DNA of 20,007 nt, from positions 1 to 20,007 of IMG/VR virus record IMGVR_UViG_3300048908_000128. One strand, 5' to 3'. Made by a program: the position numbers and the translations under genes. Source of the DNA: a virus. Positions 312 through 20,007 of this stretch are shown here, piece by piece; position 1 is the stretch's first letter, and every line of letters begins with the position of its first letter. Below the pieces are notes generated by a model that was given only the letters and a program-made list of their open reading frames with translations, ran no database searches and had not been told where the DNA came from.

Positions 312-668
312 GTGATCCTTTATCACTTCACCTGTGAGCACGCGGCCGCCGGCATCCTCGGCGACGGCGGGGTGATCGTGCCGCGGGTGCACCCGCTGCT
401 CGGCTACGGGGTCGTGTGGCTGAGTCTCGAGCCGGCGCCCACGGCGGCCGCCCTCGGCCTCGCATCCCGGCAGCTCGTCACGTGCGATCGCATGGCTGCC
501 CGGTTCGTCGTCGACGAGCCCGTCGACGCGGTGCCCTGGTACAGCGTGCGGGATCGGCTGCCCGGCCCGCTCGCGCGGCAGCTCACGATCGCGTTTCAGG
601 CAGCGCTCGGCACACGCCCGGGTGTGTGGTATCTCTCGAGGGTGCCGCAGCGCGGCCGCCTCGGGTGA
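312..668 (+). CDS. Hypothetical 118-aa protein and the only plus-strand gene. Its N-terminus (LYHFT...AAGILGDGGVIVP...VVWLS) is reminiscent of minimal ART-like/HYD1-type toxin domains. That similarity is unverified.
   Basis: GTG start. Third codon positions are almost all G/C in this frame and the composition looks like a real protein, whereas the antisense ORF 147..734 is an R/P-rich artefact. The stop TGA at 666-668 lies inside the left arm of the 663-736 hairpin. Confidence 0.75.
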   Translation: MILYHFTCEHAAAGILGDGGVIVPRVHPLLGYGVVWLSLEPAPTAAALGLASRQLVTCDRMAARFVVDEPVDAVPWYSVRDRLPGPLARQLTIAFQAALGTRPGVWYLSRVPQRGRLG

Positions 669-736
669 CGTCACCTGACAGCGGCACGGGCCAACCGGGG
701 GGTGCCGGCCCGTGCCGCTGTCAGGTGACGTCACCC
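663..736. terminator. 30-bp perfect inverted repeat (663-692 with 707-736, 14-nt loop) between the convergent genes 312..668(+) and 764..958(-). It is a likely bidirectional terminator, and each arm carries a GTGACGTCAC palindrome.
   Basis: The arms GGGTGACGTCACCTGACAGCGGCACGGGCC and GGCCCGTGCCGCTGTCAGGTGACGTCACCC are exact reverse complements. There is no U-tract on either side, as in I-shaped actinobacterial terminators. Confidence 0.6.
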
Positions 737-763
737 CGTCACGTGACGGGGTGACGTCACGTG
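734..763. promoter_or_regulatory. Palindrome pair: CCCCGTCACGTGACGGGG (734-751, 18 bp perfect) followed by GTGACGTCAC (751-760)
   Basis: Read directly. Both belong to the GTCAC/GTGAC palindrome family also seen at 3565-3627 and 11889-11965. Confidence 0.5.
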
Positions 764-958
764 CTATTCGGGCCCGGGTGCGTCGACCTGCAGCCGCAGC
801 TCGGCGTCGAATCCCTGCGCCCAGCTAATCCGGGTGCCGGGGGACAGGTAGACATGGGCGCCGGCGTGCTCGGCCTCGAGCTGGCAGGGGATGCCGGGCC
901 CGAGCCGCAGCACGGCGTCACACGTGGCGGTGTCGGCGGGTGCCGTGTCACGTGTCAT
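764..958 (-). CDS. Hypothetical 64-aa protein (MTRDTAPADTATCDAV...)
   Basis: The ATG at 958 forms an ATGA overlap with the stop of the upstream Lsr2-like gene. GC3 is high in this frame. It is the last gene before the 663-736 hairpin. Confidence 0.6.
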   Translation of the reverse strand: MTRDTAPADTATCDAVLRLGPGIPCQLEAEHAGAHVYLSPGTRISWAQGFDAELRLQVDAPGPE

Positions 959-1290
959 GCGTGCGTTTCGTGCCACAGGTCGACGACGTGCGCCGGCATC
1001 CGGCCGCGGGCCGATTCGGTCATGTGCCCCTCGGCGATCGCCCATTCGCGAATCTCGCGACGCTGTATGGCCTCGGGTGTCGACGCCCGTCGACGGGATC
1101 TCGTCGACGACGGCCGTGCCGGCGAGATCCGCCGGGCGGCGTCGAGATACGGGGCGAGCGCATCGCGTAGCTGCTGCTCGTTGTCGGGTGCGAGATCGAT
1201 CGCGTATGCCGTGCCGTCGAGCGCGAAATCGACCTGTCGCGCGTCGGGGGTGCCGTCGATATCGTCAGTGCGAACCGTGATAGTTGCCAT
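955..1290 (-). CDS. lsr2: Lsr2-like nucleoid-associated protein (xenogeneic-silencer family)
   Basis: The N-terminus TVRTDDIDGTPDARQVDFALDGTAYAIDLAPDNEQQLRDALAPYLDAARR matches the Lsr2 dimerisation domain pattern. A basic linker follows. The C-terminus IREWAIAEGHMTESARGRMPAHVVDLW matches the Lsr2 RGR DNA-binding motif. Confidence 0.85.
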   Translation of the reverse strand: MATITVRTDDIDGTPDARQVDFALDGTAYAIDLAPDNEQQLRDALAPYLDAARRISPARPSSTRSRRRASTPEAIQRREIREWAIAEGHMTESARGRMPAHVVDLWHETHA

Positions 1291-1329
1291 TGCCTGTATG
1301 CCTGTTTCTCGTCGGGGGGATGGGGGGGT

Positions 1330-2229
1330 TTATGCGACGGCCGGGGCGACGTCGTCGACGCCGGCGGGAATGTCGAGGGTCGGCGCGTCGCCGACCGCCG
1401 GCCATGTTTCCTTCCCGGGGCGAAACCGGATCTGCCGCAGCTCGACGCCGTCAGTCCATGCGTTCCATGTCTTAATCAGCGCGGCCGCGCCGATCGCACC
1501 CCGGTAGGCATTCGTCGTCGCCGGGTAGCCACTTTCGGACAGCAGCCAACGCCGCAGGGTGAGCAGCGGTGCGCCGACCGATAGGCCGGCGCCCGACTCG
1601 AACCGCTCGACGAAATCGTCGAATAGGCCGTCGCCGGGCTGCGACTCGAGGATCAGTGTGAGCCCGCTTGTCATCCATGACCGCATCCCGTTGCGCCCGA
1701 GCGCGGCCGCGATCGCCCGCGCTTTCGGGATCACCTGCCGCATGATCTCGCCCCGCTCGCCGGTTACGAAATCGATTACGTCGCGGGTCGTGAACAGTTG
1801 CCGCACTTCTGCCGACGGTAACCGCCGGCTGCCGGCGATCTCGCCATAGACGAGCGTCAGCCGGGCCGCGGCAGCGGTCACGTTCGCGTCGGCGATCCCG
1901 CCGATGTGCAGCACGCTCGCCGTCGAGCGGGTCAGCCCCGAATCGATCGTGTCGAACGTGTCGCGCGGCACGTCGAACGCGACCGACATCCGCACGGCCG
2001 GCATGTGCGACCGGATCACGGCGAGCAGCCTGTGCTGCCCATCGATCAGCACCCCGTCGTCGGCTATCGCGATCGCCTGATGAGTGACGCGCCATTGCCC
2101 GCGCTCCATTGCGTGCGCGTAGGCCGATACCCGGTTCGCGGTCGGGTGTCGCTGCCGGATCTGTTCGGATGCCGCGTCTAGCCATGCTCGCGCTTGCTCG
2201 GGGGTGACGTCGACTGTTTCAACACGCAT
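1330..2229 (-). CDS. ParB/Srx-superfamily N-terminal domain protein (DGQHR motif), 299 aa
   Basis: The motif GVLIDGQHRLLAV lies about 60 aa from the N-terminus, typical of ParB-like nuclease / DGQHR domains. The ATG is preceded by GAGAGGG at SD distance. The C-terminal roughly 200 aa are unassigned. Confidence 0.7.
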   Translation of the reverse strand: MRVETVDVTPEQARAWLDAASEQIRQRHPTANRVSAYAHAMERGQWRVTHQAIAIADDGVLIDGQHRLLAVIRSHMPAVRMSVAFDVPRDTFDTIDSGLTRSTASVLHIGGIADANVTAAAARLTLVYGEIAGSRRLPSAEVRQLFTTRDVIDFVTGERGEIMRQVIPKARAIAAALGRNGMRSWMTSGLTLILESQPGDGLFDDFVERFESGAGLSVGAPLLTLRRWLLSESGYPATTNAYRGAIGAAALIKTWNAWTDGVELRQIRFRPGKETWPAVGDAPTLDIPAGVDDVAPAVA

Positions 2230-2248
2230 GGGGGATGCCCTCTCAGAT

Positions 2249-2818
2249 TCATCGGAAACGGGGCGATATGGGACGCCCGTTACCGGCGATCGTAGCGTCG
2301 TCGCCGTAGGGCGACGTGATTTTCGCGCCTTTGATCCCGTTGTGCGTCTGGCACAGGGGTTGTAAATTCCGCATGTCGTCAGTGCCGCCCAGTGCGCGCG
2401 GGATCACGTGATCGATCTGTGTCGCGCGGGTCGTGATGCCCTCGCGCCGGCATTGCCAACAGTGCCGCCCGTGCGTGCGATATGCCTGTTCGCATATCCG
2501 CTTACGGTAATTGCCGACCCAACAGGGCAGCGTGTCTAGGTGCGGCCGCTTGCAGCGGCTACAGTTTGGGACGGACCCGCCCGCCACGGTTGACACGATT
2601 GGGACGCCTGTTATACGTGGCGGGCGGGGCTGCAGCGAGGATTTCGGGTCGCCTCGAGATCTCGGGATGCCGGCAGCAGACATGGCGGGGCGACGCTCGC
2701 GCTGTGCTCGAGCGTCGCCCCTGTCCCCATGTGCGCCGTGCCGTGCATCGGTATCGACCATAGCGCCGATATATCGAATCGCCGCATCCTTTGGAAACGA
2801 AACGATGCAATGATGCAA
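2249..2818 (-). CDS. HNH endonuclease. The start is uncertain, and the real start is probably internal (ATG 2683, or GTG 2596/2587).
   Basis: The C-terminal domain is CSRC...CWQCRREG...IDHVIPRALGGTDDMRNLQPLCQTHNGIKG (HNH with CxxC pairs). The longest ORF starts at a TTG. Its first roughly 45 codons cover a lower-GC stretch and a 13-bp perfect hairpin. Confidence 0.8.
   Translation of the reverse strand: MHHCIVSFPKDAAIRYIGAMVDTDARHGAHGDRGDARAQRERRPAMSAAGIPRSRGDPKSSLQPRPPRITGVPIVSTVAGGSVPNCSRCKRPHLDTLPCWVGNYRKRICEQAYRTHGRHCWQCRREGITTRATQIDHVIPRALGGTDDMRNLQPLCQTHNGIKGAKITSPYGDDATIAGNGRPISPRFR
2687..2721. other. 13-bp perfect GC-rich hairpin (2687-2699 with 2709-2721, 9-nt loop) immediately upstream of the ATG at 2683
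   Basis: GGGGCGACGCTCG and CGAGCGTCGCCCC are exact reverse complements. No U-tract follows. Confidence 0.5.
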
Positions 2819-2850
2819 GCTCTTGACTTAACGGGCCGGCATCCGGTATC

Positions 2851-3129
2851 TCACCACACGCCGGCATCGGCCAGCCGGTTACGGGCGGTGCGTTTCGCGG
2901 CCCGCGCGACGTCGTACTCGGCGAGCACGTCGTCGAGCCCGCTGCAGCCGGCGGCCGCGGCGATCGCGACGATCGCGGCGAATGCCGGCGCATCCGTGCG
3001 CCGGATCTCGTCGAGCACGTCGGCGATCAGGTCGGCGGCATCCTGCATGTCATGCTCGGCCTGATACTCGGCATCCTCGAGCCTGTTGATCTCGGCCTGC
3101 GTCAGTGGCTCGACGTCGTCGCCGGTCAT
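2851..3129 (-). CDS. Hypothetical acidic helical protein, 92 aa
   Basis: The ATG at 3129 forms an ATGA overlap with the stop of the upstream gene. The sequence MTGDDVEPLTQAEINRLEDAEYQAEHDMQDAADLIADVLDEI... looks like a real protein. Confidence 0.65.
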   Translation of the reverse strand: MTGDDVEPLTQAEINRLEDAEYQAEHDMQDAADLIADVLDEIRRTDAPAFAAIVAIAAAAGCSGLDDVLAEYDVARAAKRTARNRLADAGVW

Positions 3130-3569
3130 CCTAGGATCGCTTTGATCTCGCGTCGCGGCATGACGAGCGCGCCGTGCTCGCCGAGCGGCTGCAGGCCGAA
3201 TTCGTCGCGGTGCCGCCGGATCGCGTGCACACTGATGCCCAGCGCCTCGGCGGCGATCTCGAGCGGCACGAAACCGGGCAGCGTGTCGACGAGCTGCGAG
3301 ATCGGCGGCCGCTGCTGCAGCATGCCGCTCGACGAGCGTTCGACGGCCGTCGACGGGGTCGGCACGGGCCCGCGGGCCGGCTGATCGGGTCGTTCGTAAT
3401 CGGCCGGGATCAGCCATGCCCCGTCGAGCTTCATCGCCCCCGGGATGCCGTCGGCTAGCCAGCGTTTCAGCGTCCGGTCACTGATCGGCCGGCCGGCTCG
3501 CGATCGCAGGTCAAGAAATCCGGCGAACGTGACGAGCTGTGCAGGGGTGTCATTAGGTGTATCTGTCAT
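3126..3569 (-). CDS. DNA-binding protein with two tandem excisionase/MerR-like winged-HTH domains, 147 aa
   Basis: N-terminal domain: VTFAGFLDLRSRAGRPISDRTLKRWLADGIPGAMKLDGAWLIP. C-terminal domain: FVPLEIAAEALGISVHAIRRHRDEFGLQPLGEHGALVMPRREIKAI. Both fit the excisionase-type HTH pattern. The ATG start is embedded in the GTCAC-repeat array. Confidence 0.75.
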   Translation of the reverse strand: MTDTPNDTPAQLVTFAGFLDLRSRAGRPISDRTLKRWLADGIPGAMKLDGAWLIPADYERPDQPARGPVPTPSTAVERSSSGMLQQRPPISQLVDTLPGFVPLEIAAEALGISVHAIRRHRDEFGLQPLGEHGALVMPRREIKAILG

Positions 3570-3627
3570 GTGACAACCCTACGTCACGTGACGTCACACT
3601 GTCACCCGTCGTCACGTGCCATGTCAC
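3565..3627. promoter_or_regulatory. Array of seven GTCAC/GTGAC pentamers, including the 14-bp perfect palindrome ACGTCACGTGACGT (3581-3594) and GTGACGTCAC (3588-3597). This is a candidate operator or binding-site cluster.
   Basis: Read directly. It fills the whole 32-nt gap between the stop of 3602..3805 and the start of the wHTH gene, and extends into both genes. Confidence 0.55.
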
Positions 3628-3805: not shown

Positions 3806-3811
3806 CCTCGG

Positions 3812-3817
3812 ATCGTA
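3812..3817 (-). promoter_or_regulatory. Candidate -10 hexamer TACGAT (TANNNT) for a leaderless transcript starting at the GTG at 3805
   Basis: There are 6 nt between the hexamer and the start codon, and no separate SD. Confidence 0.25.
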
Positions 3818-4300
3818 ACGTCGGGCGCCGGCGGCCGCTTATGTATACCGTCCCGTTGTGCATGCCGGGTAGCGGAGGGAGGGCAGAGGGCCGCTCCCCC
3901 CCCACAGGGGAGGGAGTGCACGCCGGTATAGCATCGGTCGGTATATCGGTATAGCCCCGGCAGGGCGAGCCTGCCGACGTCGGGATATGTGAGCGGCAGC
4001 CCCCTGATTAAAGAGGTGATAGCGACATAGACGCCCGTGCGGGTCGCGCTTCCGTCACTCGGCCCCTGCCGGCCGGTCAGCAATGCCGGCTCGAGGGGAG
4101 GGTTATCTGATCGCCCTCTAACGGTCAGTCACCCGGCCCCCGGGGCTACCCGCCCTAATGGGCGGGATCGTGGCCGGGCTTGTGTGAGCCAGTGTGAGTT
4201 TTTGCGAGTTGTTCTCTCGGCGATCCGTCGGCGTGTCGTCGCTTTCATCGCTCGGCGTATGTCTGTCGGGTCTGTTACGCTTACCCCTAGGTTTTCGTGC

Positions 4301-4338
4301 TGAAATCCAACCTAGGGCGGCCAATCGGCCGCCCTAGG
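4301..4338 (-). terminator. Strong hairpin CCTAGGGCGGCC-AATC-GGCCGCCCTAGG (4311-4338). It is a candidate terminator ending the long minus-strand structural operon.
   Basis: 12-bp perfect stem with a 4-nt loop. On the minus strand it is followed by TTGGATTTCA, and on the plus strand by TGTTTCC. Confidence 0.55.
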
Positions 4339-4511
4339 TGTTTCCGGCGGCGTGTCGACGAATCCAGATCTCGACGAGCCGGGCCCGCGGAAATCGACGT
4401 CACAGGATGCCCTGTGCCGCACGAAACCGGGTCGGGTGATAGTAGGACCGCTAAACGCCGGGGGACAGCGTCTAGCGGCCGCACAGGGCCGCTCACAGTG
4501 TGGGGCCGTTT

Positions 4512-4649
4512 TCACAGCAGCCCCCGGGCCGTCAGCAGCAGCACGAGACACGTGCCGGCGATCACGGCCGCGGCGACCATACCGACGACCGATGCGAGCA
4601 CGTAGGGACGCGGGTCACGACGCGCCCAATCCGGCCGGCGCGTCATCAT
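4512..4649 (-). CDS. Small membrane protein, 45 aa, one TM helix (possible holin-like or membrane protein)
   Basis: MMTRRPDWARRDPRPYVLASVVGMVAAAVIAGTCLVLLLTARGLL has a basic N-terminus followed by a hydrophobic helix. ATGATGA overlap with the upstream stop. Confidence 0.55.
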   Translation of the reverse strand: MMTRRPDWARRDPRPYVLASVVGMVAAAVIAGTCLVLLLTARGLL

Positions 4650-4912
4650 TGCCGCCCGACCTGCAGCACTTCGCGCACGCCGGCGCCGGCGCCGTACTCG
4701 GCAGCACAGAATGCGCACGCGAGCACGTCATGCGTCGCGAGCAGCCTGTGCAGCTCGAGCTGCACCCGCCGGCAGCACGGCAGACACACGTCGACGGCCG
4801 TGCTGCAGCAGCGCGTCGAGATCCGCCGGCGGGCCGGCCGGCCGCAGCCGATGCACGCGACGACGTCGTCGACGGCCGCCGGCGATCGCTGCTCGAGAAT
4901 GGCTCTCATCAT
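4646..4912 (-). CDS. Cys-rich (three CxxC) putative zinc-binding protein, 88 aa
   Basis: Contains CIGC, CLPCC and CAFC motifs. ATGA overlap with the upstream gene. Confidence 0.6.
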   Translation of the reverse strand: MMRAILEQRSPAAVDDVVACIGCGRPARRRISTRCCSTAVDVCLPCCRRVQLELHRLLATHDVLACAFCAAEYGAGAGVREVLQVGRQ

Positions 4913-5091
4913 TCGATCCCCTCTATCACCCCGTCGTCGACGGGCACGGCCGGCCGGGTGACGACGTCGCCGCCCCGGGTCACGACCCGCCCGTCGTCAC
5001 GATTCCCGCAGCCATGCACGCACCAACCGGATACCGGGTCGTACCTGTGCCGCTTGCCCGGCCGGCATTCCCGCGCCCAGCGCGCCGGCAT
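4909..5091 (-). CDS. Hypothetical 60-aa protein (Cys/His containing)
   Basis: ATG preceded by GGGGTGAG. The 3' end overlaps the next start (ATGA). Confidence 0.5.
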   Translation of the reverse strand: MPARWARECRPGKRHRYDPVSGWCVHGCGNRDDGRVVTRGGDVVTRPAVPVDDGVIEGIE

Positions 5092-6605: not shown

Positions 6606-7376
6606 TCAGCTCGCGACGAGCCCGGGCCCGAGATATTGCACTGAGAATTCGCCGCTCGCGCGGCCGCCCGCCGGATTCGCGCCGAATGCAAACGGGTTTG
6701 GGCCGGCGGCGTACAGCCAACGCAGCGTTTGCCCGGCGCCGAGCGGCACGTCGCTCGCCATAACGGGCCCGACCGATCCGTATGACGCATCGGTCTGATA
6801 CTTGCCGAGTGCGAGCGGCGTCGACGTGCCCTCATCGGCGACCAGGTATGCGATCGCCGCATTCGATTGTGCCGTCGTGCCGCCCTGCAGATTCATGAAT
6901 ATGCGATAACGCCCGGCACGGCCGACCGTGACGCGACCCGTCGACGAATTAAACGAGAGATCGGTCGTATTCCGCCAGCCATAGGTGCTCGGGACCGGCG
7001 TCCAAAGGGTATAGGTCGCGCCGGGTGCGAGCGATTGGACGCCGTTACTTATCATATCGATTCGCGGCAGGTTGCCGGCGACCGGATACCAACCGGCCGC
7101 ACCGTATTCGAGCCCGGGCACGGTCAGCCCGGCCGTGCCGGCGGCCGCGTAATAGGACTCAAACCAGCCAAATTGTGTATTCCACCACTGAATACGCTTA
7201 TTGGCGAGTGCCGCCTGTGATGCGGCGTCTGCAGGCACGCCGTGTTTCGCGTCACGGTTCGCCGATGTGCCGATAAATTCGATCGCGAGGGCGAGATTCT
7301 TAATCGCATCGGCGCCGGCCGCTACCGGTTCTGTTGGCAGCGGGTAGGGCAATCCGCCCGGGGTTGTGCTAGGCAC
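6606..7376 (-). CDS. Minor tail protein / putative receptor-binding (fibre-like) protein, 256 aa
   Basis: The N-terminus GGLPYPLPTEPVAAGADAIKNLALAIE is the motif common at the N-termini of actinophage minor tail proteins. It lies downstream of the tape measure and has GGAGGG upstream of the GTG. Confidence 0.65.
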   Translation of the reverse strand: MPSTTPGGLPYPLPTEPVAAGADAIKNLALAIEFIGTSANRDAKHGVPADAASQAALANKRIQWWNTQFGWFESYYAAAGTAGLTVPGLEYGAAGWYPVAGNLPRIDMISNGVQSLAPGATYTLWTPVPSTYGWRNTTDLSFNSSTGRVTVGRAGRYRIFMNLQGGTTAQSNAAIAYLVADEGTSTPLALGKYQTDASYGSVGPVMASDVPLGAGQTLRWLYAAGPNPFAFGANPAGGRASGEFSVQYLGPGLVAS

Positions 7377-11435: not shown

Positions 11436-12058
11436 TCACCCCCCCTCGGCTGTATGTGTGCGATCGATCGCCGTCATCATTGCCTGCAGCCGATCCAGCG
11501 GCAGGTTTTCGATCACGTCGACGGTTACGTGATAGGCGAGCCCGATAACGGCGAGATCGGCGAGCCGGTCGCGGTGTGCGTCGGCGAGGGCCCGCCGGCG
11601 CCAATCACTTTTGGGCGGCGTCGGGCCAGCTCGAGCACGAGCGTCGCGAGATCGTCGAATGGGATCGCGAATGCCTGATCGATCGACAACGGGTGATCGC
11701 CGTGCAGCCGGGACGCCCAGACCATAAACACGAGCTGGCCGGCCTGCGTGCGGGTCAGCTCGTCGAGGGTGATGCCGGCGGACAGCTCGAATTGCATGAT
11801 CTGCCGGCTCGTCAGCGCTGCGCGCAGCTCGTCGGCCAGCGTGTCGACGTCGACCGGGTCGACGACGTCGTCGCCCGGCTCGTCGGGGGTGACAGCGTCA
11901 CGTGACGGGACGCTGTCACGGGACGCTGTCACGTTCTCGGGTGCCGTCACGGGCCATGTCACGTCGTCGAGCCCGGGCAGCGGGTCGCCGTAGCCGGCCG
12001 GCTCGTCGACGACGTCGTCGTCGGGCCCGGTCACGTCAGGGGTGATGAATGTGTTCAT
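11436..12058 (-). CDS. Tail assembly chaperone -1 frameshift product (GT-like), about 207 aa. The frame shifts at 11609-11615.
   Basis: After the slip the -1 frame reads SDWRRRALADAHRDRLADLAVIGLAYHVTVDVIENLPLDRLQAMMTAIDRTHTAEGG and stops at TGA 11436-11438, 4 nt before the tape-measure ATG. Confidence 0.65.
11525..12058 (-). CDS. Tail assembly chaperone (G-like, zero-frame product), 177 aa, with an acidic low-complexity N-terminal half
   Basis: Located between the tail genes and the tape measure. The ATG at 12058 forms an ATGA overlap. It contains the slippery heptamer CCCAAAA. Confidence 0.7.
   Translation of the reverse strand: MNTFITPDVTGPDDDVVDEPAGYGDPLPGLDDVTWPVTAPENVTASRDSVPSRDAVTPDEPGDDVVDPVDVDTLADELRAALTSRQIMQFELSAGITLDELTRTQAGQLVFMVWASRLHGDHPLSIDQAFAIPFDDLATLVLELARRRPKVIGAGGPSPTHTATGSPISPLSGSPIT
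11609..11615 (-). promoter_or_regulatory. Programmed -1 ribosomal frameshift slippery heptamer C_CCA_AAA
   Basis: The minus strand reads cgC CCA AAA Gtg in the chaperone zero frame, a perfect X_XXY_YYZ pattern. Confidence 0.65.
11889..11965. repeat. Nucleotide-level repeat cluster inside the chaperone gene. It comprises the inverted copy GTGACAGCGTC (11889-11899), the palindrome CGTCACGTGACG (11896-11907), an exact 13-nt tandem repeat GGGACGCTGTCAC x2 (11907-11932) and further GTCAC pentamers.
   Basis: Read directly. The 13-nt period is not a multiple of 3, so the two copies are translated in different frames (VTASRDSVPSRDAVT). Confidence 0.8.
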
Positions 12059-15684: not shown

Positions 15685-16963
15685 TCGCGGTCGCTCCAAT
15701 CGCCTGCAGGTTGGTCTGTGTGATGATCTGCTGTGCCGCGGCGACGACGTCGTCGGCGGTCTGATCGGTTGTCTCGGGCCGGCGTGCGGTCTGCGCCGGC
15801 GTCGGCAGCGGCGGATACCCGAGCTTTGCCCGGATCTCGTCGACCGTGAACACGCCCGCGCCGGCGTACCCGGTCAGGATCTCCATCGTCGATTTCGCGT
15901 CGGCCCGCATCCTCGAGTCGTAATCCCAGACGACCGACGTGCCGCCCGGCATAAGCCATTTCGTCATCGCCTCAGTGAGCGGCCGCATCCAGCGGTCGGC
16001 ACTGTCGCGCACGAAATCGATATCGCCCGTTTCGACGTTCTGATATGTCATCGTCGGGCCGTCGAGACCCAATTTCCACGGCGGCACGCCCACGGCGTTC
16101 GCCGTCATGTGCGCGTTCCATTTGCGCGCGTCGACGAGCTGCGCCTGTTCCGCGTTGCCCACGATCGGCAGCAGCGTCGTACCCGACGGCAGCACGACCG
16201 GCTCGCGGGTGAGCACGATATCCCGCCATTTCTGTTTCAGCTCGTCGGCCTGTTCCTGTTTCACGACGCCGCCGGCGGCGATCACGGCCGGCGGCAGCGC
16301 GCCGGCGGCGAACGTGTCGCGGCTGTACGATTCGGCGGCGAGATCGCCGGCGAGCGAATCGGCGTACTGCTGCAGCACCCCACGCCCGAGTAGCTGCCCC
16401 GATCGGGCGCCGAATGACACGTGAAACACTTCATCGGGGCTGAGAGTGATCCCGCCGATCACCCATGCATACGTCCCGTCGGGGTCGACCTGCAGCCACA
16501 CCTGATCGACGGGCAGCGGCACGAGCCAGCCGGGCCGGCCCGTGCGCCAGTCCAGATCCCCCTTTAGGGCAACATGGTTGCCGTAGAGTATCCCGTCCTC
16601 GGCGGCCGCCCAGCGATACCCCCACAGCGTCGACAACGGGTCAGGGTCGGTCACGATCGACGGCTGATCGGGCAGCGGAATCGCGATCCCGAGATCCCGG
16701 TCGAACCGGCGCGCATACCATTCCGTCGACGCGGCCGCATTCGCCAGCAGCGCGACCGCCCGCCCGAATGGCGGGTAGCCGAGCGCGTCGGATTCCGTCG
16801 CCGGCTGCACGGTCGGAATCAGCGGCGGGTCGGTCGTCGTCAGCGTCAGCAACGCCTGCCGGGTGAGCCGGCCCGGCAGCGCCGGCCGGGCGAGCTGCTG
16901 CAGGGCGGCCGACCCGCGCAGCCGGTTACGGGCATAGGACAGTGCTACATCGCGACTCGCCAC
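15677..16963 (-). CDS. Portal protein, 428 aa
   Basis: Size and position directly after TerL. GTG start preceded by GAGG. Confidence 0.8.
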   Translation of the reverse strand: MASRDVALSYARNRLRGSAALQQLARPALPGRLTRQALLTLTTTDPPLIPTVQPATESDALGYPPFGRAVALLANAAASTEWYARRFDRDLGIAIPLPDQPSIVTDPDPLSTLWGYRWAAAEDGILYGNHVALKGDLDWRTGRPGWLVPLPVDQVWLQVDPDGTYAWVIGGITLSPDEVFHVSFGARSGQLLGRGVLQQYADSLAGDLAAESYSRDTFAAGALPPAVIAAGGVVKQEQADELKQKWRDIVLTREPVVLPSGTTLLPIVGNAEQAQLVDARKWNAHMTANAVGVPPWKLGLDGPTMTYQNVETGDIDFVRDSADRWMRPLTEAMTKWLMPGGTSVVWDYDSRMRADAKSTMEILTGYAGAGVFTVDEIRAKLGYPPLPTPAQTARRPETTDQTADDVVAAAQQIITQTNLQAIGATANV

Positions 16964-19984: not shown

Positions 19985-20007
19985 CTGATCGGGTAAAAAC
20001 GGGCCCG
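19985..20007. repeat. Terminal direct repeat, copy 2 (identical to 1-23)
   Basis: Exact 23-nt identity with the window start. Confidence 0.9.

Follow-up and report, generated by a model that had tools for sequence, protein, structure and literature searches.

GTSAC repeats at a convergent gene junction of a small siphovirus as a candidate origin-type iteron cluster with a probable double winged-helix binder

The space between two convergent genes of a small siphovirus is filled with a simple pentamer repeat, and at least 91 other phages carry the same repeat within a replisome-organiser or replication-initiator gene. On this ground we consider the repeat region, referred to as array A, to be most likely a protein-binding iteron cluster that also stops transcription. 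The DNA analysed here, called the window hereafter, is the whole IMG/VR virus record IMGVR_UViG_3300048908_000128 with its 20,007 nucleotides, and array A occupies its positions 663-763. Our reading, which is tentative and held at a little less than even confidence, is that array A represents a cluster of iterons of the origin type, that the double winged-helix (dHTH) protein of the same phage probably binds them, that the cluster carries an inverted duplication, and that its hairpin, which has no U-tract, ends two convergent transcription units, perhaps together with a protein. The original prediction for this region offered a centromere-like site, a packaging recognition site or an operator; origin-type iterons were absent from its list and are the reading favoured by the widest comparison.

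The window spans an entire metagenome contig and encodes a small siphovirus with ~68% GC and nearly all of its genes on the - strand. Positions 19985-20007 are identical to positions 1-23 (CTGATCGGGTAAAAACGGGCCCG, 23 nt), and this terminal repeat indicates a circular assembly and a genome of 19,984 bp. The late-type genes, i.e. terminase, portal, capsid, tail and lysin, are on the - strand, as is the early operon with the gene order 67-aa, dHTH, 92-aa, HNH, ParB-like, Lsr2 and 64-aa. The final gene of this operon, encoding 64 aa, is at 764..958. The sole + strand gene at 312..668 encodes 118 aa (the JGI call has 93 aa from about 390) and converges on array A; P0004, a homologue of it, sits in an unrelated gene context. 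No helicase or primase is encoded in the window, no tRNAs were found in it, and no Rfam family reached the gathering threshold. Among cultured phages, those of Microbacterium Cluster EE (17 kb) are the closest, with dHTH proteins 35-39% identical and portal proteins about 24% identical to those of the window. The closest portal is found in the Curtobacterium phage Barebow (28% identity), whose genome has no enriched palindrome. We infer an actinobacterial host for the phage. Read on the - strand, positions 1-45 (GACACCCCGCGCC...TTTTTACCCGATCA) align with the cos junction of the Cluster EE phages (...GACACCCCGCCCCA / GTCTTCATTTTCACCAGATCA), and this alignment makes them a probable cos site, followed by a bidirectional terminator with T-tracts at 61-88.

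The lysis genes and the early operon are separated by ~700 bp (3806-4512) that contain no convincing ORF. This stretch holds a terminator-like hairpin (CCTAGGGCGGCC-GATT-GGCCGCCCTAGG) at about 4310-4337, three TATACCG repeats at about 3935-3965 and a purine-rich tract at 3862-3891, and gave no Rfam match. A similar non-coding stretch of ~640 bp is found near the dHTH gene in the EE phages and in the contig L004. A 60-aa ORF at 4909-5091 on the - strand (…RHRYDPVSGWCVHGCGNRDDGRVV…) resembles by eye the translation of about 16240-16330 in the EE phage Naby (L002), a region annotated as non-coding.

The elements that had been reported for 663-763, i.e. a 30-nt inverted repeat, the palindromes and the copies of a 12-mer, were all recovered at their positions. 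The perfect inverted repeat spans 663..736, with arms at 663-692 and 707-736 that are 100% complementary to each other and a 14-nt loop between them. Each arm reads GTGAC-GTCAC-C-TGACAGCG plus GCACGGGCC and contains a third, degenerate unit, which is CGTCACCTGACA at 669-680 in one arm and TGTCAGGTGACG at 719-730 in the other. The palindrome GTGACGTCAC (P1) occurs three times in array A. Its first copy at 665..674 contains the TGA stop of the + strand gene; the second at 725..734 is common to the long hairpin and to a 42-bp palindrome at 722..763 (95%); the third at 751..760 ends 4 bases before the stop of the - strand 64-aa gene. The 42-bp palindrome has the layout P1-ccc-P2-ggg-P1, and at its centre is the 18-bp palindrome CCCCGTCACGTGACGGGG (734..751), which contains the 12-mer CGTCACGTGACG (P2) at 737-748. 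With one stop (TGA, 666-668) inside the first palindrome and the other (CTA, 764-766) one base past the last, the repeats occupy the entire intergenic space. A near-identical contig of 937 bp (L003, JGI sample 3300048907) differs from the window by 3 SNPs, 2 of which are inside the 74-bp hairpin; these two, at window positions 669 and 721, each break a hairpin pair and may be real variation or assembly errors in the palindrome. Exact-protein look-ups matched only near-identical fragments (L001, L003 and L005), and the array region had no match among 50,697 phage records using megablast and blastn.

P1 is found four times in the window, at 665, 725, 751 and 3588, with an expected number of 0.04, and 0 of 100 shuffles reached four copies; the copy at 3588 is an addition to those previously listed. 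P2 is found three times, at 737, 3582 and 11896, with an expected number of 0.00. The motif is non-random by these counts, as had been claimed. The underlying unit of both palindromes is the pentamer GTSAC (GTGAC or GTCAC), and the ~100 bp of array A are almost wholly made of it. Three clusters of 6-7 GTSAC units were found in the window, namely array A and two further arrays, B and C, so the reported reuse of the motif elsewhere in the genome also holds. In 500 order-2 Markov simulations the largest GTSAC cluster reached 5 units in one run only. The looser unit TGAC[AG] singles out arrays A, B and C and nowhere else in the window.

Array B (3570..3627, - strand) consists of 7 GTSAC units directly at the start of the dHTH gene (3126..3569, - strand), and its P2 (3582-3593) overlaps its P1 (3588-3597). 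The - strand reads GTGACA(3605-3600)-N18-TAGGGT(3581-3576)-N6-ATG(3569) with P2 within the spacer, a putative leaderless-promoter-like arrangement as judged by its match to the consensus; a sigma-70 scan found nothing at array B. At the beginning of the dHTH gene itself (3546-3569), 5 of the 7 codons after the ATG end in A or T (ACA GAT ACA CCT AAT GAC ACC), and the GC3 of the genes in this genome is about 0.74-0.89. This codon usage suggests a constraint at the level of the DNA or of translation initiation. Array C (11889..11962, - strand) also has 7 GTSAC units, with P2 at 11896-11907, and lies inside an ORF at 11525-12058. It contains an exact 13-bp tandem repeat (GGGACGCTGTCAC x2, 11908-11933) and encodes ENVTASRDSVPSRDAVTPDEPGDD. 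The period of this repeat is not a multiple of 3, which argues that it was selected or generated at the DNA level.

The three arrays align on the - strand as paralogous modules, each made of GTGAC direct repeats, CGTCACGTGACG and GTCAC. Arrays A and B are colinear on this strand, with TAGGGT in B corresponding to GGGTGA in A and ATG corresponding to CTG. Array A, being colinear with B minus the -10 element and the ATG, thus looks like a copied dHTH promoter region, and from the alignment it looks as if part of this copy was duplicated in inverted orientation.

The main support for an origin-type reading comes from other phages. The 15-mer GTCACGTGACGTCAC at the core of array B occurs in at least 120 IMG/VR contigs; a control 15-mer gave 67 matches, its source EE phages included. 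In at least 91 of these contigs the 15-mer lies inside a replisome-organiser or initiator gene. Among the low-GC loci, 82 of 88 have it inside a PF09681 replisome-organiser gene (E 2.7e-52), encoding HVTSRD at the point where the N-terminal domain gives way to the low-complexity region. All 29 high-GC loci have 4-10 GTSAC units, and in at least 9 of the 29 the motif is inside an ORF matching an organiser or initiator profile. In L088 the ORF with the motif belongs to phrog_1408 (replication initiation protein), and the array of L076 adjoins a DnaB helicase gene. The GC-rich codons of the motif are retained even at 33% GC, which points to the DNA, and not the peptide, being constrained. Throughout L029-L148 the 15-mer is often extended to the 20-mer GTCACGTGACGTCACGTGAC, and in the high-GC phages it is near polypurine tracts. 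Judged from these sequences, GTCACGTGACGTCAC in organiser genes is a cross-phylum signature at the DNA level. Our literature search found no paper on this signature, and a search for GTCACGTGAC returned eukaryotic E-box papers only.

PF09681 proteins carry origin repeats in their low-complexity region. The window resembles such organiser-gene origins (PF09681; gp38 and oriL/oriR of SPP1) in having arrays of short repeats with an identical 15-mer core. Arrays B and C have 7 of the family's repeat units each, versus 4-10 elsewhere. Array C, like the organiser-gene repeats, is in a coding stretch with V-T-S/A-S-R-D followed by an acidic low-complexity run; here the encoded sequence is VTASRD...SRD and then the acidic run. 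The window also has, like oriL/oriR of SPP1, several dispersed clusters with one in the late region. SPP1 has two widely separated sets of initiator-binding repeats, one in the late gene region, and the protein bound to that set was proposed to stall replication forks (PMC6316719). There are also clear differences. A search (hmmsearch) of all 284 ORFs of the window with organiser and initiator profiles gave a best E-value of 0.059 and no organiser homologue, so the family tied to the motif elsewhere is absent here, and no organiser or initiator in the window holds the repeats within its gene. None of the arrays has an AT-rich unwinding element beside it, the ten lowest-GC 40-bp windows all being elsewhere. 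Array A differs further from these origins in being intergenic and in forming a perfect inverted repeat.

The candidate binder of the arrays is the dHTH protein, which has 147 aa and two MerR/Xis-type winged-helix domains. It matches phrog_22141, with weak matches to HTH_17, and its AF2 model consists of two wHTH domains and a disordered linker. Foldseek matched these domains to RacA, Pukovnik Xis, BldC, HiNmlR, gpNu1 and TraN; sequence searches of the PDB with the dHTH and the ParB-like proteins gave nothing useful. The wHTH relatives are known to bind short GC-rich repeats or clustered palindromes, e.g. D29 Gp36 (PMC12266134) and BldC (PMC5859096), and RacA with the same wHTH fold binds TGACGCCGGCGTCA (PMC4914108). 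The dHTH domains thus share their fold with D29 Gp36, Streptomyces BldC and B. subtilis RacA, and clustered sites are common to all of them. The units in these relatives are very short and GC-rich as well, such as GCGGC for Gp36 and the TGACG half-sites for RacA. The dHTH protein differs from them in having two wHTH domains per chain with a disordered linker and a different motif, and its binding is a prediction. We predict that it probably binds the arrays.

Few dHTH homologues exist in the collections searched, and TGAC-core palindromes are present at the gene start of every homologue examined that has both domains. The comparison covers seven lineages, i.e. the window and six others; matches to one domain only (L009, L010 and L013-L017) were judged to be unrelated HTH_17 proteins of low GC and dropped. 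Within 122 bp of the dHTH start, the observed versus expected numbers of TGAC[AG] are 8 versus 0.68 in the window, 5 versus 0.77 in L004, 5 versus 0.48 in L011, 7 versus 0.70 in Nobel and 6 versus 0.71 in Efeko, and the enrichment is significant in 5 of the 7 lineages (P<=1.2e-3). Sites of this kind at the regulator's own promoter-like start, with the position conserved across the homologues of all seven lineages, are what is expected of an operator. The dHTH gene start of L004 (45% identity) has GGACATGTCC and ATGACA repeats, that of L011 (33%) has an exact GTGACGTCAC flanked by GACGTCAC units, and that of L012 (27%) has GACATGTCAC. The starts in the EE phages Naby, Nobel (L007) and Efeko (L008) have TTGACA-N18/19-TAGACA together with palindromes, preceded by a T-tract terminator.

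Most of the dHTH lineages use the dialect GACATGTC, unlike the motif in the organiser genes. It is present in 4-8 copies in Naby, Nobel and Efeko (6 in Naby and 8 in Nobel, with about 0.3 expected), all of them at gene junctions or gene starts. The ATG within GACATGTC is the annotated start codon of the terminase and endolysin genes in Naby and of the terminase gene in Nobel and Efeko. Between the genes for the tail assembly chaperone and the tape measure of the EE phages, a GC-rich hairpin follows GACATGTC. The paper that describes the EE phages gives repeated motifs for clusters EC, EF, EG and EI and not for EE (PMC7302621). Repeated intergenic inverted repeats with no assigned function were reported for Microbacterium Cluster EG and mycobacteriophage Cluster O (PMC7302621), and these are similar to the window, itself an actinophage-like genome, in that short palindromes are repeated at gene junctions. 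They differ in being 8-10 single sites located 14-22 bp upstream of start codons, whereas the window has three dense arrays, of which one occupies a convergent junction and another is part of an ORF.

RNA folding showed the 663-736 hairpin to be dominant on both strands, with energies of -105.8 and -107.5 kcal/mol and z-scores of -9.1 and -7.9. Array A is a GC-rich hairpin directly after a gene and exactly between convergent stops, as a bidirectional intrinsic terminator would be. In contrast to the ~13-17 bp stem of such terminators, its stem has 30 bp, is built from a reused motif and is not flanked by an A- or U-tract; the sequences following the stem on the two strands are CCGTCACG and CGAGGCGG, with no U-tract in either. 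Our terminator scan reported terminator-like sites at 61-88 and elsewhere and none at 663-763. Mycobacterial RNA polymerase needs the U-tract to terminate (PMC3993855), so the array A hairpin may terminate poorly by itself.

We propose the following mechanism. Arrays A, B and C would be GTSAC iterons read by a sequence-specific DNA-binding protein. The dHTH protein at array B would regulate its own promoter and possibly mark an origin. At array A the iterons would have been duplicated in inverted orientation, and the transcript would fold into the 30-bp hairpin. Since this hairpin has no U-tract, a bound protein may serve as a roadblock, and the hairpin and the protein together would terminate transcription of the early operon and of the gene facing it. 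Array A would keep early transcription off cos and the late genes on the circularised genome. By analogy with oriR of SPP1, it is possible that array A is also a second initiator-binding site or a fork barrier.

The strongest competitor, in our view a real but lesser possibility, is that the arrays are purely transcriptional operators and that dHTH represses or activates transcription in the manner of D29 Gp36 or of a MerR-type factor sitting in a promoter spacer, with no role in replication. An operator role as such, already suggested by the original prediction, is plausible. Array A would then be a roadblock or a looping partner of array B, as the two bracket the early operon at 764-3569. 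The position of P2 within the spacer of the promoter-like element of array B fits this explanation, and in the EE orthologues the upstream TTGACA-N18/19-TAGACA likewise has a palindrome in its spacer and the T-tract terminator before it. The location of the EE sites at gene junctions and starts within the late operon, the repression by Gp36 of the genes downstream of its site in D29, and the lack of an adjoining unwinding element at the arrays all point the same way. However, pure operators leave unexplained the identical 15-mer and array style inside the initiator genes of at least 91 unrelated phages, as well as how the origin is marked in mini-phages without a recognisable replication gene. 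The iterons could instead be read in trans by a replisome organiser of a prophage or the host, dHTH regulating transcription only. This would account for a motif identical to that of the organiser genes in a window without an organiser homologue, but the cultured Cluster EE phages, which have the same genome plan, are annotated without an organiser too, and we consider the idea quite improbable. A better chance, though still an improbable one, goes to array A being merely a bidirectional hairpin terminator, with palindromes that extend the stem and a recurrence due to duplication without any shared binder. Its position exactly between two stop codons and its extreme fold stability on both strands speak for this, and the syntenic convergent junctions in the EE phages and in contigs with ParB-like homologues have plain bidirectional terminator hairpins. 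Yet neither strand has a U-tract in a genome that does have canonical T-tract terminators at 61-88, arrays B (at a gene start) and C (inside an ORF) are not between convergent genes, and the motif tracks the dHTH gene across lineages and the organiser genes across phages. The missing U-tract and the locations of arrays B and C thus favour a protein-binding array over a bare terminator, which was also the original preference.

The other two roles that had been put forward fared worse. That array A is a centromere-like set of parS sites to which the neighbouring ParB-like protein binds seems highly improbable to us. The likeness lies in the clustered palindromes with a CACGTG centre in array A and in its location downstream of, and close to, a gene for a ParB/Srx-fold protein; this 299-aa protein has an invariant DGQHR motif, and the best fold matches of its model, all weak, are ParB, KorB, Noc and Srx (E 0.2-1). 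However, it has no Pfam ParBc match even at E<=10 and does not show the GERRxRA box and accompanying ParA of a canonical ParB, no ParA being found in any ORF searched. The flanks of the palindromes are unlike parS, and none of the arrays has a match to the 16-bp parS consensus TGTTNCACGTGAAACA within 3 mismatches; the only such match lies away from them, at 16413, and does not exceed chance (14 of 100 shuffles). Nor does the motif travel with the ParB-like gene. Conservation in relatives had been proposed as the check, and L027 and L028, whose ParB-like proteins are 51-52% identical to that of the window, have no GTSAC array and 0-1 CACGTG, which contradicts the proposed link, while the Cluster EE phages carry an analogous palindrome system without a ParB-like gene. 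Incidental copies of TCACGTGA beside the ParB-like gene of L024 come from a 44-bp tandem duplication of the 3' end of that gene, and a further copy in L024, upstream of an HTH_17 gene, is not conserved in L027. The duplication in L024, a related temperate phage, is perfect; it lies at 6827-6914 just downstream of the ParB-like gene and copies the last 27 bases of the gene. Least probable of all is a packaging recognition site (cos or a pac accessory). The gpNu1-type wHTH folds among the structural matches of dHTH favour it, but the EE cos homologue at about 1-45 is roughly 620 bp from array A with a whole gene in between, and with cos elsewhere the packaging reading of array A fails. Moreover, the EE genome ends have no copy of the motif, and the distance to cos is 3.6 kb for array B and 11.9 kb for array C. 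We also compared by eye some host-factor motifs (CRP/GlxR TGTGA-N6-TCACA, the RecA-NDp motif and WhiA GACAC), and none of them fits.

Our favoured reading of array A as an origin-type iteron cluster can be extended to a broader model, to which we give a rather low chance. The 17-20 kb EE-type actinophages, in which no replication protein is recognisable, would use dHTH as a minimal origin-binding initiator on the GTSAC/TGAC iterons that are read by replisome organisers in larger phages. Array A would be a second site for this initiator and a barrier to transcription and forks alike, similar to oriR of SPP1, at the boundary between the early and late genes of the circularised genome.

If the arrays are only operators plus a terminator, they would represent ordinary phage regulation. 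If the iteron reading is true, it would provide a candidate origin or operator system, along with a candidate protein, for the smallest tailed actinophages. It would also tie a simple 5-bp repeat to the replication-initiator genes of phages with widely differing GC content. Finally, array A would be a defined hairpin without a U-tract in a high-GC phage genome, at which RNA polymerase may stop only with the help of a bound protein.
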